From the NCBI RefSeq assembly GCF_053078305.1, contig NZ_CP166879.1: a stretch of 64,000 nt of DNA. The stretch is one strand, 5' to 3'. Below, piece by piece: positions 1 through 6,000 of the stretch (position 1 is its first letter; each line of letters begins with the position of its first letter). A program made the position numbers.

Positions 1-3000
1 AGGATATGGAGCCGTACATCATCAGCCAGTCTGTCGGTGAGACTGAAATCGCCGCCCTGGGGGACAGGCGTTCGGCTTTCAGTTCTCCGGCTCGGGGATT
101 GAAGCTCTTGTACCGGTCATAACGGGAACCGACGATAATGTTAACCGGGTTGCTTTTCATTGTCATTTCATCCTGGAAATACAACGATGTAAAGTCAATG
201 TTTCCTTCCGGATATAGTGTGGCAGAGCCTTCCGGCTTCTGCTGCTGACGGTAATATTCAGCGCCATAACTTAACTGATGGGCTCCCGGAAAAATCAGAG
301 TATGGCTCCTGTTGACAACATTAACACCGGAGGTTCTGTTGTTTCGCCATTCTGCTGTTTTGTTGTGACCGTTTGTCTTGATAGTGATATCACTGAGATA
401 TAACGTTGACTTTACATTGATGAGGCTGTTATCCGCAGGGGCGTACTGGTACCAGAACTGCACGTCATTTTGTGCTGTTTTTCTGTCACGCAGGCCGTTG
501 TCACCATGTGTCAGAGTGGGATTGCCCGGTTCAGTGGTGTTATTCTGGTAGAGACGCAAGCTGGCACCTGCTTTGTTACTGTCTGTTATACTGACAGAGC
601 CTTTCGCAAACAGGGCTGCAGGTTTTTCCTTGTTAGGTGCACGCTCACCATCACTCTGATAGATATTTCCTCTTTTACGCATAATGACAGAAAGAAGCGC
701 ATCTGTTTTTCCGGTTTTACCGAACCAGGTGAGCCCCGAGCCTGTGCTGTGGTCACCACTGGCGACATTTCCCCACAGACTTACACCGTTTGTCTCTCCG
801 GGGGGAAGAAAATCTGCAGCATCGGCAGTTCTGAAGTCCACCACCCCCCCCAGCCCGCCACTGCCGTACAGACTGGAGTTTGGTCCGCGGACAACTTCGA
901 TGCGTTTGATGAGTGCCGGCTCGAGATAAGTGCCACTGCTTTTTGCCATGTCACTGAGTTGACGGACGCCGTCAACAAGAACAAGTACCCCGCTTTTGTC
1001 ATAGCCGCGTAGATTAAAGGTCTGCCCATTGGTCCGTCCTGCACCAGTCTGGCTGAGACCCGCAACACCTTTCAGCATACCGGCTGATGTGACCGCATTC
1101 TGACTCCATGGCGTGTCATTCGTGATGACACTGACCATCGACGGCGTTTCAAATACCGTGTTCTGATTTCCTGTCGCGACAACGGTGATTGTATCTTTAG
1201 CCATAGAAGAATGACTTGTCGCTGTCTGTAGCCCCACCGGAAGTATGATTAATGTACAAATGACAGTTCTGATTACGTTCATATACATTCGAAAATATAT
1301 GTCAATACAGCAATGTTATAACATAATATTTTGTTTGTGCAACCACTATTACGCAGTGTTCAGTGCTAATCTGTTAATAGCTATTCTAATACCCAGTCGA
1401 ACCACTAAGAGTGTATATGGTAAGCCTGCCCTTGAGTCACTATTTCCTGACAACTACTGCATCTAAGGTGACGTTACTTGCTGACGTCGATATTCCCTTG
1501 GTGAGAGATAACCTAACGCACTATGCGGATGGTTTTCATTGTAATACCCGATCTCCACTGCAAGATTATGCAATGCCGTTCTTACATTAGATTTCGGCAT
1601 GCACGCGATGTAGTCTTTCTTCATCGTTTTCACGAATCGTTCGTAAGTGATGAGATGATCTTCCCCCGTATTGCAAGAGTACAGCAACTATGATAGGGAC
1701 AGGTTTACTTTCGTATATCCGGTTTGTTCATGAAGTTATTGCTTCTGGCCTTGATGAGACATTCGCGCGCTCCGACCTTATCGCTTACTCGGCCTTACTG
1801 GCCTGGCTCATCTTGCAGGTTTTCGTAACGTCGGTCTGACCTGTTTTTCATCATTCTGCATTCTTTGCAATTTCAGGGTAAGCTTTACTCCTACTGATTT
1901 TACGTAGATTATTGATTTTGTTTTGCTGCGGGAAAATACATCTCATTGCGGGCGATAATTGCCCAGGCGATCCGAAGGAGTTTATTTGCAAGAGCAACAA
2001 CTGCCCGGTTGAAGCCACGCTTTTCCCGAATACAATTAACCCACACACGAAGTGAATCAGTTTTCTCTGAGGCTCTGAATAATACCGCTCTGGCACCCTG
2101 TATCAGCATAGATCTGACATATTGATTATATGAACACATCCCGTTGCAAGGCATCCATTGCCTTGACAGTGACGGGTAGGTTGCAGCTTTATATCCGGCT
2201 TTTTTGCAGCCATGAAGCTGCGAGCCCCTATGTAATTCGCTGACTCACACCTCATTTCTCCAGCGAGCTTTTAGCTCAACACAATATTCAGGTTTAGTGA
2301 GTCCCGGTCTTACCTGTCGTTGTCATCACTATGGCCGCCAGAGTTACCTTTCAGTATTCATCCTTTCATTAAAAGTTAATATTTATCGGTATCAGAGATT
2401 AATATGATCTGATACTGACATGATTCTTGTCGTATTTACTTCCATGAGCTGCTATCGCCCATACTGTTCGTGCCAGTTTGTTTGCCATGGCGACGATTGC
2501 CACGCTGGTTGGACGACGTTTTTTCAGTTCGGTTATCCACGGACCAGGTTCTTTGGGCAGTAATGCTGCCGCCCTTGCGCTATGAATAAACAAGGCTCGC
2601 AGATATGTATTACCACGTTTGCTTATCCCCAGCAGGCGGATTTTCCCTCCTGAGCCAGTCTGTTTGGGCACCAGACCAACATAAGCCGCGAACTCTCGCC
2701 CTGATTTAAACGCTGATGCTTCCCCCATGGTGGCCACCGCTGCCGTTGCAATAAGTGGCCCAACGCCGGGAATATCCAGCAACCGCTTACAGGTTTCATT
2801 CTGTCTCGCCACGCTGGTAAGCTTTTTTTCAATATCCTCTATCAGCGAGTCCAGCTCATTCAGCCGGTTGTACTGGTTTTCCAGCACTGTAATGAGATAC
2901 GGCGGCAGTCTCTCTTTCATCCGCTCCAGTGCTTCAGGGAGCTCTCGCTCCATCGCTGCCCGACCTTTGTGAATGGTTTTACCAAATTCTAGGAGCGTGC

Positions 3001-6000
3001 CGTGCAGAGAATTAATCTGCATGGTGCGGAACTTAACCAATTGTCTGCGGGAACGGTGCAAAACCAGCACTGACTGTTGTTCTTCTGTTTTAACCGCGAT
3101 GTCCTTACCTGGCTGCTGAACAGCCATCCAGATAGCCCGGGCATCCATCACATCATTCTTATTTCCCATGACGAATGCCTTAACAAAGTGGGCCTGTAAC
3201 AACCGGACTTTATGCCCCAGCTTTGTCAGTTCACGCACCCAGTGCTGAGAGCCTCTACAGGCCTCCATACCAATCAGGCAGGGTTCCCGATTACAGAAGA
3301 ACATCAGAAAATCCTGACGACGTAGTTGCTTATCAATCACTTCACCTGTGTGCTCGTCGATGAAATGAACCTGAATCAGATGTTTTGCGATATCAACGCC
3401 AACCAGTGTATATTTCATTTGTGGAGTCTCCAGTCTGAGGGAGCTTTATGCATCCTGTATTGGACACTATGATGCCGGAAATCTGCGAGGCTCCACACCT
3501 TCCAGTATTTCCCTTCATCCATCACAGAGCACCTGACTTAATGGGGTGGGATGTGTTCATTACATTTCTCCAAATTTTGTTATACCCAGAAGAACCTGCT
3601 TCCCACCTGTGCTGAACTGTCGGGGAACCAGTCCCAGAGTCGCAGATGCATCTCTTCCTCGTCTAAACTGTTTTCCATCCCCCATCCAGCTTTTTATTGC
3701 CTGACTAACCAGAGGGCTGAATCCAGGAATGGCTAACAAGCGTTTGCACATAGGATCTTGGCGGACATATTTTTCAGTTCAGAATCATACCACTCCAGTT
3801 CATTATCTAGTGTAATCAACCGTATATACTGCCGATGCAATAACGTCCTCATGGTATCAGTGAGTTCGTTTTCCGCATCCTCAAGTAATGCCGGTAATTT
3901 TTGGCGTAATTCTGTTGCGCCTTTACTGAACACAATGCCATATTCAGCAAGAAGTCCACGAACGTGATTTATCAGTTGTGTCCTTTCCATCGAAACCAAC
4001 CGGCGCATTTTCAAAAAAGTCTGGACGTCCTGTTACTCCAGAGTTTTTATTGGTACGGGGCGTATAGTTCCATGTTGGCAGGCCTCTGCTATTGCCTGAG
4101 CGTCGTCATAATCATTTTTCTGGCGTCGCTGATAAGCTTTAACATGTTGCGCCGGAAGAAATATTACATCATGGTCGAGTTTCCTGATTTCCCTGGCCCA
4201 GTGATGGGATGCCCGCGAGCCTCCATCGCAACAGTCATTTTGGGCTGTTGCACCAGCCAGTTAAGCAGTTGATTGCGAGAAAGTTTGATCCTTCCTGCGG
4301 GTTTGCCATGAGCATTGATACTGAAAAGATAAAAGTTCGTTTTAGCCAGATCGATGCCGGTGATTTTCTGTTGAGACATGGTATCCCTCTTACTTTTGTG
4401 GTTAAAGTTTATCCATCATGACGTAATTAAAGGTTGTCGTGAAGGAGGGGGAAGACCATCTCATCGCTTACTGATGTTCCTGTTACTATATCTATTGAAT
4501 CCTGGCTATAAGTTCGCTGTTTAAAGAATTATATGAATAGCACCAATTAATAAGTTAATATTAAAAAGAAGACAGACCTTCTAAATAAACGCATTGAATC
4601 TATGTTCCCTTGTGAGTGTTTTTACGTTTGGCGGGAGGCCTGGAACCTCGGGATTTAACTTTTCTTTTTATATTTTTGATAAAATCATCAATAGAAAACT
4701 GAATCGTCTCTGATAAATACTGTTGAGCTATATCTGTACTCTGTTTTTCTAAATCAGAAGCTTTCTTTGTTTCAAGAACAGATTTGATTAACTCCTTACG
4801 TTGTGTACACCAAATCTCGTCAGATGAACAGTATTTTTTATTTTCGTGTTTGTTCATTATTTATTGCTCTAACTGATTTATTTCCCTATATCCAGGGAGT
4901 AGATATATCTACTCCCTGCTTATTATCATTTCACGTTAGTTAAAGATTTTTTTATATTCTCAAATTTGGCTTGGTTGATATCACTGATCGGTTTTTGACT
5001 TGACGTGATGAAGTCAATCATAACAGCCTTCATATTCTTAACTACATCAGGATGGGATGCAGAGAGATCTTTAGTTTGTTGCAGATCGTTGATATCGTAC
5101 AGAGCTAGTTTATTCTCTGCATAGGTGTAAACCAGAGAATAATCGTTGCTTCTTACAGTGTATGCAAACTGGCTTAAGTCTTCTGTATGTGGGTTGTGCG
5201 GATAATCATCAGACTCTTTTCTCACGAATTTATGATATCCGTTCCAGAATGCAGTGTTCTCTTCGTCCCACCAGTGAGAATAAGAGGTAATCCAGGACAG
5301 ATATTTGTGAGGTTCGCCAGCTGCAGATTTCTTATCAGCTCCTTTCTGTACATATGGCAATAATGATACACCATCCAGTTTCAGAGAAGCAGGGATCTTG
5401 ATATCTGCGGCATCTAAAGCGGTCGGATAGAAGTCCATTGATGAAACCAGTTTGTCATAATCACCCGTTTTCAGCTTGCCATTCCACCACATGAACATAG
5501 GTGTATGCATACCACCCGGATACGGTTGGCCTTTGTAACCAGCCTGCGCACCATTCAGTGGCAGTGGACCATCAATTACAGCACCGTTATCAGAGGTGAA
5601 CAGAATGATGGTGTTGTCGTACTGACCTTTTTCCTTAAGTGTATTCAGGATCTTTTTAACCCCCTGGTCAACGGAGTAAATTGACGCATAATAGTTATCA
5701 GCAGTCTTGCTACCAGTGTTGAATTTCTCCTGATAGTTTTTAGGCGCAGGCTGATCGTTAGGCAGGTGTGGTGCACTGTATGCCAGATAAATCATAAATG
5801 GCTGTTCCAGTTTGCTTGCACGGTCAATTACACCAATTGCTTCATCAGTTAATTGATCACTAATGTACCCTTCAGCTTTAATGTTTTCACGGTTACGGAA
5901 CAATGACGGGGAGTTATAAAGTGAAACGCCGGATGCGTGATAGCCCATGAAGTAGTTGAAGCCACGATTCTGAGGTTGCCATTCTTCTGCGGAGAAGGTG

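Follow-up and report, generated by a model that had tools for sequence, protein, structure and literature searches.

The left end of the 64,000-nucleotide stretch of contig NZ_CP166879.1 (NCBI RefSeq assembly GCF_053078305.1) that we analysed, hereafter the window, holds two insertion sequences (ISs) of the IS1111 group, one inside the transposase gene of the other, in the same orientation and with all their features on the minus strand. Searched by tblastn with the intact 343-aa IS110 family transposase WP_063118185.1 of E. coli strain 488 (L002:1820-2851; L numbers are our handles for compared loci), the outer gene appears as four collinear matches in three reading frames, with identities of 87-95% and a grouped E value of 1.8e-140. 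This bears out a first-pass annotation, made from the sequence alone, which had described four fragments of one IS110-type transposase around a complete and different gene of the same family; the enclosed gene indeed encodes an unbroken protein of 339 aa with the domains PF01548 and PF02371, and shares only 37% amino-acid identity with the outer transposase. That the pattern arose from unrelated short open reading frames (ORFs), or from a mis-join of two IS copies, can practically be dismissed: beyond the strength of the grouped collinear matches, the same architecture is present in 30 complete genomes that were assembled independently and come from several countries and hosts, and we therefore see no assembly artefact here.

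The lesions of the outer gene were placed by DNA alignment and by reading the sequence. Two 1-nt deletions, one in a run of Gs near 4215 and the other in a run of As near 3775, shift the frame, a CAA codon has become TAA (Gln to stop) at 4035..4033, and the 1,440-bp inner IS (3567..2128) separates positions 3568 and 2127; at the DNA level, the two halves meet at a single position, 2634, of the uninterrupted relative L002. The limits proposed in the first-pass annotation, 4379 and 1909, coincide exactly with where the start codon begins and the stop codon ends in the broken gene, and the four ORF pieces that it listed (4164-4379, 3733-4014, 3560-3751 and 1909-2154) were borne out. What it overlooked, for want of a start codon, is a fifth collinear piece at 4163..4015, situated between the frameshift near 4215 and the TAA codon. 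The elements themselves extend beyond these coordinates. Their ends were mapped by alignment to relatives, and lie at 3567 and 2128 for the inner IS and at approximately 4466/4471 and 1655/1643 for the outer IS (Table 1).

Table 1. Features of the nested elements and of their surroundings in the window; a caret marks the insertion point or junction
Feature	Position	Strand	Basis or remark
Inner IS, complete, 1,440 bp	2128..3567	-	Ends mapped against ISEc11 (L003), L004 and ISEc66 (L019/L020)
Inner left end: extension AAATGTA + subterminal repeat ATGAACACATCCC	3548..3567	-	Alignment to relatives
Inner transposase gene, 339 aa, open reading frame	2399..3418	-	Pfam, NCBIfam; 96% aa identity to ISEc66 transposase, 91% to ISEc11 transposase
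Inner predicted seekRNA/bridge-RNA target-binding module	2242..2303	-	Outer stem GACUCAC/GUGAGUC; position homologous to ISEc11 guides
Inner guide 1 ATATTGTGTT	2287..2278	-	Homology to ISEc11 guide position
Inner module hairpin	2277..2265	-	Consensus fold
Inner guide 2 CTGGAGAAATG	2263..2253	-	Homology to ISEc11 guide position
Inner right end: subterminal repeat GGGATGTGTTCAT + AT	2128..2142	-	Alignment to relatives
Inner-element target forms			Nest-derived TTTGGAGAATCAATATG; intact relative (L002) TTTGGAGATCAATATG; predicted ideal TGGAGAACACAATAT
Inner-element predicted circle junction			...GTTCATAT^AAATGTAATG...
GTAAG directly left of outer IS	4467..4471	-	Left half of the outer family's target; IS66-family inverted-repeat tip in other copies
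Outer left end: 7-nt extension CGATGAG + subterminal repeat ATGGTCTTCCCCC	4447..4466	-	Repeat is reverse complement of 1667..1655
Outer transposase aa 1-56	4379..4212	-	tblastn; -1 frameshift in G run near 4215 at its end
Outer transposase aa 57-203	4212..3772	-	tblastn; in-frame TAA 4035..4033; -1 frameshift in A run near 3775 at its end
Outer transposase aa 203-272 (Transposase_20 domain)	3775..3568 (tblastn match to 3566)	-	tblastn; PF02371 E = 4.7e-10; truncated by inner IS
Outer transposase aa 272-343 + stop codon	2127..1909 (tblastn to 1912)	-	Starts AATCAATATG, one A more than uninterrupted relatives
Outer seekRNA-like module, 3' non-coding	1780..1815	-	...CCTG, guide 1 CAAGATGAGCCA, hairpin GGCCAGTAAGGCC, guide 2 GAGTAAGCGAT, AAGG...
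Outer right subterminal inverted repeat GGGGGAAGATCAT	1655..1667	-	Comparison with relatives
Non-canonical 12-mer CTCATCACTTAC directly after outer right repeat	1643..1654	-	Inverse of GTAAG + CGATGAG
Rebuilt IS66-family repeat GTAAG^CGGCTCGCCAGAACCGTATTGA			Compared with ISEc8 right repeat GTAAGCGTACAGCGAGGGCCGTATTGA
Rebuilt IS66-family repeat GTAAG^CGCCTCATTTGAATCGTCTGG			Compared with ISEc8 left repeat GTAAGCGTACAGCCTGAACCGTCTGG
Outer-type copies in IS66 repeats (GTAAG^CG)	L002:1728-3242; L005:2501-3874; L029:~940-2240		Left repeat (L002), right repeat (L005), right repeat (L029)
IS3-family integrase-core fragment (C-terminal part) adjoining nest	1419..1642	-	Pfam rve_3 E = 5e-11; BLAST homology to ISEc48-like elements from 1642
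Sulfatase	4926-6623		
Porin, frameshifted after ~78 codons	6719-7875	-	Intact in sister genomes (378 aa in L001)
Serine protease autotransporter of Enterobacteriaceae (SPATE)	11654-15745		
S8 subtilase, 347 aa	17983-19026		
Tyrosine integrase	25319-26503		
Conjugative-element genes	29569-63798		DnaB, topoisomerase, TraD/TraG-type coupling protein, TraC

The ends of the inner IS are fixed by relatives that all sit in other contexts: ISEc11 (L003), inserted in the tnpB gene of an IS66 element; the L004 element, which is 90% identical and has phage tail genes on both sides; and the plasmid-borne ISEc66 (L019, L020), the names being those of the NCBI annotation, in which ISEc66 occurs on Salmonella IncHI1B and E. 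coli IncF plasmids. Elements of the IS1111 group have subterminal repeats and a long non-coding region downstream, not upstream, of the gene (Siddiquee et al. 2024, PMC11187229). The inner IS conforms to this pattern, with 13-bp subterminal inverted repeats that are complementary at 13 of 13 positions, short terminal extensions of the size expected for the group (~7 nt on the left and 2-3 nt on the right), and 149 nt of non-coding DNA upstream of the gene vs 271 nt downstream; no target-site duplication surrounds it. The protein has the domains of the IS110 family (PF02371, E = 1.5e-21; PF01548, E = 5.3e-10) and matches the NCBIfam model NF033542, 'IS110 family RNA-guided transposase', with 331 bits vs a cut-off of 140, the intact relative of the outer transposase reaching 301 bits. 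D9, E52, D89/D92 and S256, the last in a TGSGGK stretch with the Ser-Gly-Gly motif, are all present, in columns conserved across the clade, and are by analogy the putative catalytic residues.

The closest named element is ISEc66, with which the inner IS shares 93.8% nucleotide and 96% amino-acid identity, vs 87% and 91% for ISEc11. Isoforms in ISfinder are held to 95% nucleotide and 98% amino-acid identity; the inner IS falls short of both values and differs from ISEc66 in both guides, and under these conventions it would be a separate, unnamed IS. The two elements share the length (1,439-1,440 bp), the ends AAATGTA + ATGAACACATCCC ... GGGATGTGTTCAT + AT and the scaffold of the seekRNA, but the guides of ISEc66 are ATAATTCTTT and ACAGGAAATG, its target, ACAGG^AAGGAATTAT, lies beside plasmid genes whereas the inner IS interrupts TGGAG^AATCAATATG in another IS, and the inner IS has 13 lineage-specific amino-acid changes.

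The published target of ISEc11 is read by two segments of an 82-nt seekRNA (PMC11187229). In our comparison, this target, GTGA^AAATACTG, is matched by ACAGTATTTT at position 1283 of the IS, complementary to the top strand, and by GTGAAAATA at position 1309, identical to the top strand. The homologous positions of the inner IS, 1281 and 1306, carry sequences that differ from those of ISEc11 and match the inner element's own flanks: guide 2 equals the left flank and the first bases of the IS (TTGGAG^AAATG) at 10 of 11 positions, as well as 7 nt of the reconstructed target TGGAG^AA; CAATAT, in the right flank, has its reverse complement in guide 1, two bases next to the crossover point being mismatched. 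When the guides of nine clade members were compared with all flanks, each element matched its own flanks best, on the diagonal of the matrix, and the guides changed with the flanks; the match is 10/10 in the L010 element, whose target is a plasmid ssb leader, 9 in L014, 9-10 in ISEc11 and 9/10 with a wobble pair in ISEc66. The RNAalifold consensus predicted from eight relatives consists of an outer stem of 7 bp, an inner stem of 3 bp, a terminal hairpin and a large internal loop, in which both variable guides are located. Compensatory changes that affect both partners were seen in 6 of the 19 pairs; two of these belong to the terminal hairpin and four to the outer stem, the latter four all owing to a single relative. 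The window's own sequence folds likewise, with a minimum free energy z-score of -2.2. An Rfam scan of window positions 1-8000 at E <= 1 gave no match, and the predicted seekRNA therefore lies outside the curated families.

Because the inner guides match the very sequence that was interrupted, the choice of site is best explained by RNA-guided targeting; most likely, to judge from these matches, the element was led to a motif within that part of the outer gene which encodes the conserved Transposase_20 region. The first-pass annotation had instead read the locus as successive insertions into the same site, and this part did not hold: the inner IS lies ~900 bp inside the outer one, at a sequence that matches its own guides, and the outer family uses GTAAG^CG. 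It is true that both elements belong to one family and share an orientation, that the arm is crowded with IS remnants and that further IS66 and IS3 insertions are found at the locus in sister genomes, all of which one would expect of a positional hot spot that repeatedly drew in IS110-type elements and produced the nesting as a by-product. We nevertheless regard such a hot spot as very improbable, as the two insertion points are not only far apart but unrelated in sequence (outer GTAAG^CG, inner TGGAG^AA), each matches the guide segments of its own element, and the inner site, being part of the outer transposase gene, did not exist at the locus before the outer IS had arrived. The arrangement is better described as the serial, sequence-directed targeting of one mobile element by another, with no positional hot spot involved.

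Several observations weigh against a straightforward guided insertion. Guide 1 fits the right flank less well than do the corresponding guides of most relatives, with 6 contiguous nt (CAATAT) and two mismatches beside the core, a fit that is the poorest of the nine-element set and comparable to that of L009. In the register of the two closest relatives, L010 and ISEc66, a shift of 1 nt is needed to obtain even this match; the same register gives TGGAG^AACACAATAT as the ideal target, in which the CA called for by the guide stands in place of the T found at the real site. There are also 6 nt in common between guide 1 and the L010-type target, and by this resemblance part of the guide may be inherited rather than specific to the site. 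Only one insertion of the inner element is known and, therefore, its preferred target cannot be derived independently. Finally, the junction holds one A too many: the uninterrupted site in L002 reads GGAGATCAATATG, and the nest implies GGAGAATCAATATG (GGAG-AA-TCAATATG). Among the 29 uninterrupted outer-type relatives (93-95% identity), L002 is the one that was read directly at the site; the other 28 lack 1-2 nt over the length of the 300-nt query, which agrees with an extra A in the nest.

The donor junction usual in the clade is CATAT-AAA-TGTA, and conservative recombination would then need a target with two As; the targets of L010 and ISEc66 likewise begin with AA. No register of the crossover, among the several that we tried, reconciles a single-A target with a donor junction of three As. 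Either a +1 A frameshift that improved the match was present in the outer copy before it was hit, or the joining was imprecise. The former could be part of a fully cognate insertion, in which the outer copy already read GGAGAATCAATATG and the mismatches of guide 1 came later, through drift of the seekRNA. The two As would then suit conservative recombination just as they do in L010 and ISEc66, other 1-nt indels are present in the outer copy, and the inner element seems to evolve neutrally. On the other hand, the guides are identical in six copies of the nest, with no polymorphism in 2303..2242, and the two mismatching bases recur in the L010-type guide (AACACA) and so point to ancestry more than to drift of recent date; furthermore, none of the 29 uninterrupted relatives was found to have two As. 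Drift of the guide after the insertion is less likely for these reasons, and a fully cognate insertion appears to us a rather doubtful alternative. With a match that is imperfect next to the crossover point and a junction that is one A too long, the inner site is, on this comparison of sequences, probably a near-cognate one and not the preferred target of the element.

Of 5,426 complete E. coli genomes, 30 carry the nest (99.3-99.4% identity), all at one chromosomal locus; many of the 30 bear the label Shiga toxin-producing E. coli (STEC). No other copy of the inner element with at least 95% identity was found in these 5,426 genomes or in 72,556 PLSDB plasmids, where the one match, at 98.4%, turned out to be this very nest in strain STEC639; when 100,044 species-representative genomes were scanned for an exact pattern from the inner guide region, 0 matches were obtained, and the site is unoccupied in all 29 uninterrupted copies of the outer family. 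Counted with six outgroups, nonsynonymous changes since the split from ISEc66 number 13 in the inner lineage and 1 on the ISEc66 side, with 16 synonymous changes in each (Fisher p = 0.007). Among the six nest copies that we compared (the window, L001 and L023-L026), 12 codons are polymorphic, 9 of them nonsynonymously and 3 synonymously; G104D, G232R and G264E hit glycines that are invariant in the clade, and G55R, likewise at a clade-invariant position and three residues after the presumed catalytic E52, is fixed in all six. The density of polymorphisms is 1.25% in the inner IS, no lower than the 0.8-1.0% of the dead outer IS.

The first-pass annotation had called the inner element an intact copy inside a decayed one. 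The nesting is real and the inner ORF is open in all six copies, but functional intactness finds no backing in the substitution pattern, which looks neutral, and the several sites and the purifying selection expected of an active IS are replaced by one locus and a 9:3 ratio of nonsynonymous to synonymous polymorphisms. An open frame is in any case an unreliable sign of activity in this clade, as two ISEc11-clade transposases with intact ORFs (L012:495-1514 and L009:557-1576) are substituted at the column of the presumed catalytic glutamate, with MKAC and MDVC for MEAC. We thus consider with moderate confidence that the inner copy is most likely an immobilised, unselected fossil that has so far escaped a disabling lesion, although the counts behind neutral evolution, with 12 polymorphic codons, are small and count against leaning on them heavily. 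The opposite view, that the element is a live master copy kept in the safe haven of a dead IS and able to transpose when given a cognate target, could appeal not only to the open frame in six copies but also to perfect repeats, to the intact and invariant seekRNA fold and guides, to the DEDD residues and the Ser-Gly-Gly motif, and to relatives residing in other mobile elements (IS66 tnpB, plasmid ssb leader, phage tail genes). It is unlikely, however, given the empty searches for a second location in chromosomes, plasmids and species representatives, the 29 unoccupied outer-family copies, the damaged glycines and the 13 lineage amino-acid changes vs the single one in ISEc66.

The outer IS is an unnamed IS1111-group element with a transposase of 343 aa in its intact relatives, 87 nt of non-coding DNA upstream of the gene vs ~254 nt downstream, and 13-bp subterminal repeats that are complementary at 12 of 13 positions in the window and at 13 of 13 in L001. 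Homology to its relatives begins at 4471 (GTAAGCGATGAG ATGGTCTTCCCCC...) and ends at the right subterminal repeat, 1667..1655. In eight outer-type copies in different contexts, GTAAG (ATAAG in one) precedes CGATGAG, and guide 2 of the putative seekRNA module, GAGTAAGCGAT, equals the flank GTAAG and the IS start CGAT over 9-10 nt; guide 1 and the right flank differ in concert between L002 and L005, though less cleanly. As guide 2 spans GTAAG and CGAT, analogy with the ISEc11 clade would place the true left end at 4466, with the 7-nt extension CGATGAG. The canonical right end is CCAT+ATA in L002, L005 and L029, where it is followed by CG... sequences, and L017 ends likewise. When the CG... flank is joined to GTAAG in the first three, IS66-family terminal repeats of the correct length are rebuilt (Table 1); the L017 copy has no recognisable IS66 repeat, and at the window's copy, the 5-nt tip is all of IS66 that is visible and the right end is non-canonical. 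These junctions suggest that what the outer family targets is the tip of an IS66-family terminal repeat (GTAAG^CG). A literature search for IS1111 elements targeting IS66 repeats found no report, and one for ISEc66 returned nothing relevant; a scan for the outer left end added only two copies, in an Enterobacterales metagenome-assembled genome and in Trabulsiella, with unrecognisable right ends.

The odd right end of the window's outer copy comes from a 12-mer that extends its termini to a 25-bp inverted repeat, matching at 22 of 25 positions in the window and at all 25 in L001, where the 12-mer reads CTCATCGCTTAC; it is absent from L002, L005, L017 and L029. A deletion between two inverse copies, situated in both repeats of one IS66 element, would produce such a repeat, but the 8-bp target duplication of IS66 to be expected with it is not evident. 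As candidates for this duplication, GAACATCA and GAACGATT match at only 4 of 8 positions, which is unconvincing. In E. coli 488, two IS1111-type elements lie head-to-tail ~100 bp apart (L002:642-1632 and 1820-2851), one of them frameshifted, with 32% amino-acid identity.

Partridge and Hall reportedly described in 2003 how IS4321 and IS5075 target the terminal repeats of the Tn21 family. Both are IS1111-family elements that aim at the terminal inverted repeats of Tn21-family transposons (PMC11187229). The outer family resembles them in its fixed position, GTAAG^CG, in a terminal repeat (L002, L005, L029), and differs in the host element, IS66 family for the outer family and Tn21 family for IS4321/IS5075.

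For the inner element, the closest functional model is ISEc11, which Prosseda and colleagues are said to have reported on in 2006. The two agree in architecture, in the position and fold of the 82-nt seekRNA, in the top-strand-matching guide lying 5' of the bottom-strand-matching one, and in the lack of a target duplication; they differ in guides and target (GTGA^AAATACTG, in L003 within IS66 tnpB), and ISEc11 is multi-copy and demonstrably mobile whereas the inner element is confined to one locus. ISEc11 is an experimentally characterised IS1111-family element (Siddiquee et al. 2024, PMC11187229), and ISXne4 compared with it has been described as a 'natural re-direction' of the seekRNA (PMC11187229, 'The seekRNA is programmable'). 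As in that pair, the inner element has kept the stem and replaced the guides to suit a new flank, a pattern seen throughout the nine ISEc11-clade elements; the differences are that its guides fit their target imperfectly and that this target, the outer transposase gene, itself belongs to an IS1111-group element. In the IS110 group, the bridge RNA of IS621 is reported, by Durrant et al. and Hiraizumi et al. in 2024, to read both target strands around a short core through guides in internal loops. The recombinase class, DEDD plus Ser, and the principle of guidance are the same as in the nested elements, but IS621 has its RNA upstream of the gene and no subterminal repeats, whereas the nested elements have the RNA downstream and possess such repeats.

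Taken together, the locus is very probably a two-level nest of IS1111-group elements, in which the outer came first and the inner was guided by its RNA into a near-cognate site of the outer gene, with passive inheritance since. The outer element would have arrived first, and a distant IS1111-group relative would then have integrated into its transposase gene in the same orientation, by the RNA-guided DEDD/serine recombinase step of the family. The seekRNA (bridge RNA), encoded downstream of the transposase, would present two short guides in an internal loop, of which one pairs with the left half of the target on its bottom strand and one with the right half on its top strand; guides CUGGAGAAAUG and AUAUUGUGUU would thereby have recognised ..TTGGAG^AA.. 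to the left and ..CAATAT.. to the right of the insertion. The whole nest would since have been inherited passively with its island, the outer gene bearing two frameshifts and a stop, whose timing relative to the insertion we infer, and the still open inner gene gaining amino-acid changes at a neutral rate. A more far-reaching scenario, which we offer tentatively and think less likely to be true than false, is a chain of RNA-guided hyperparasitism, with the outer family moving onto the tips of IS66 repeats and a re-programmed ISEc66-like element moving onto the outer gene, off-target and with a 1-nt spacing error, an added A and bulged pairing tolerated.

For annotation, the locus should be recorded as two IS1111-group elements, one dead and one probably dying, at ~1643-4471, and not as four hypothetical ORFs and a transposase. 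It offers a further case of natural guide re-programming in the ISEc11/ISEc66 clade, a candidate for near-cognate insertion with an imprecise junction, which bears on the off-target rules of seekRNA/bridge-RNA genome-editing enzymes, and a hint that a second IS1111-group family targets the inverted repeats of IS66-family elements. Both elements are unnamed members of a well-characterised group, and the nest is an ordinary fossil of mobile-DNA turnover that does not overturn current understanding.

The ISEc11-clade relatives examined lie mostly inside other mobile DNA (L003, L004, L010, L020): besides ISEc11 in IS66 tnpB (L003), one relative lies between the lambdoid tail genes L and K, the position of the L010 element coincides exactly with the ribosome-binding site of an ssb gene on a plasmid, and ISEc66 is in plasmid DNA, one copy being ~1.3 kb from an ssb fragment. 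An ISEc11-like left-end remnant adjoins an IS66 left repeat in L002 (4368-4473, minus strand), and many STEC genomes (O26, O111, O145) contain a remnant of this kind, ~105-145 bp long and ~80% identical to window positions 3573..3430, which in most cases is not annotated.

Sulfatase and porin genes flank the nest locus on one side and a TonB-dependent haem receptor gene on the other, and the window continues as a mosaic virulence island (Table 1), in which the 347-aa S8 subtilase has the length of the A subunit of subtilase cytotoxin. ARAGORN found no tRNA gene in the window, a motif scan of the window that allowed mismatches (subterminal repeats, targets, IS66 tips) gave no further plausible match, and collinearity with strain JNEC-KY202 ends at ~10.6 kb. 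In JNEC-KY208 (L006:4230-4300), the nest has been lost except for the first 40 bp of the outer IS, after which comes an ISEc8-like IS66 element; in O91:H21 FWSEC0008 (L007:4001-4773), ~530 bp of the outer IS are left and are followed by a cobalamin riboswitch, btuB and iha. The locus has thus been eroded differently in sister genomes, which supports the ongoing decay of the island's left arm that the first-pass annotation had proposed, as do the IS3 fragment at 1642..1419 and the IS66 pieces in those genomes.

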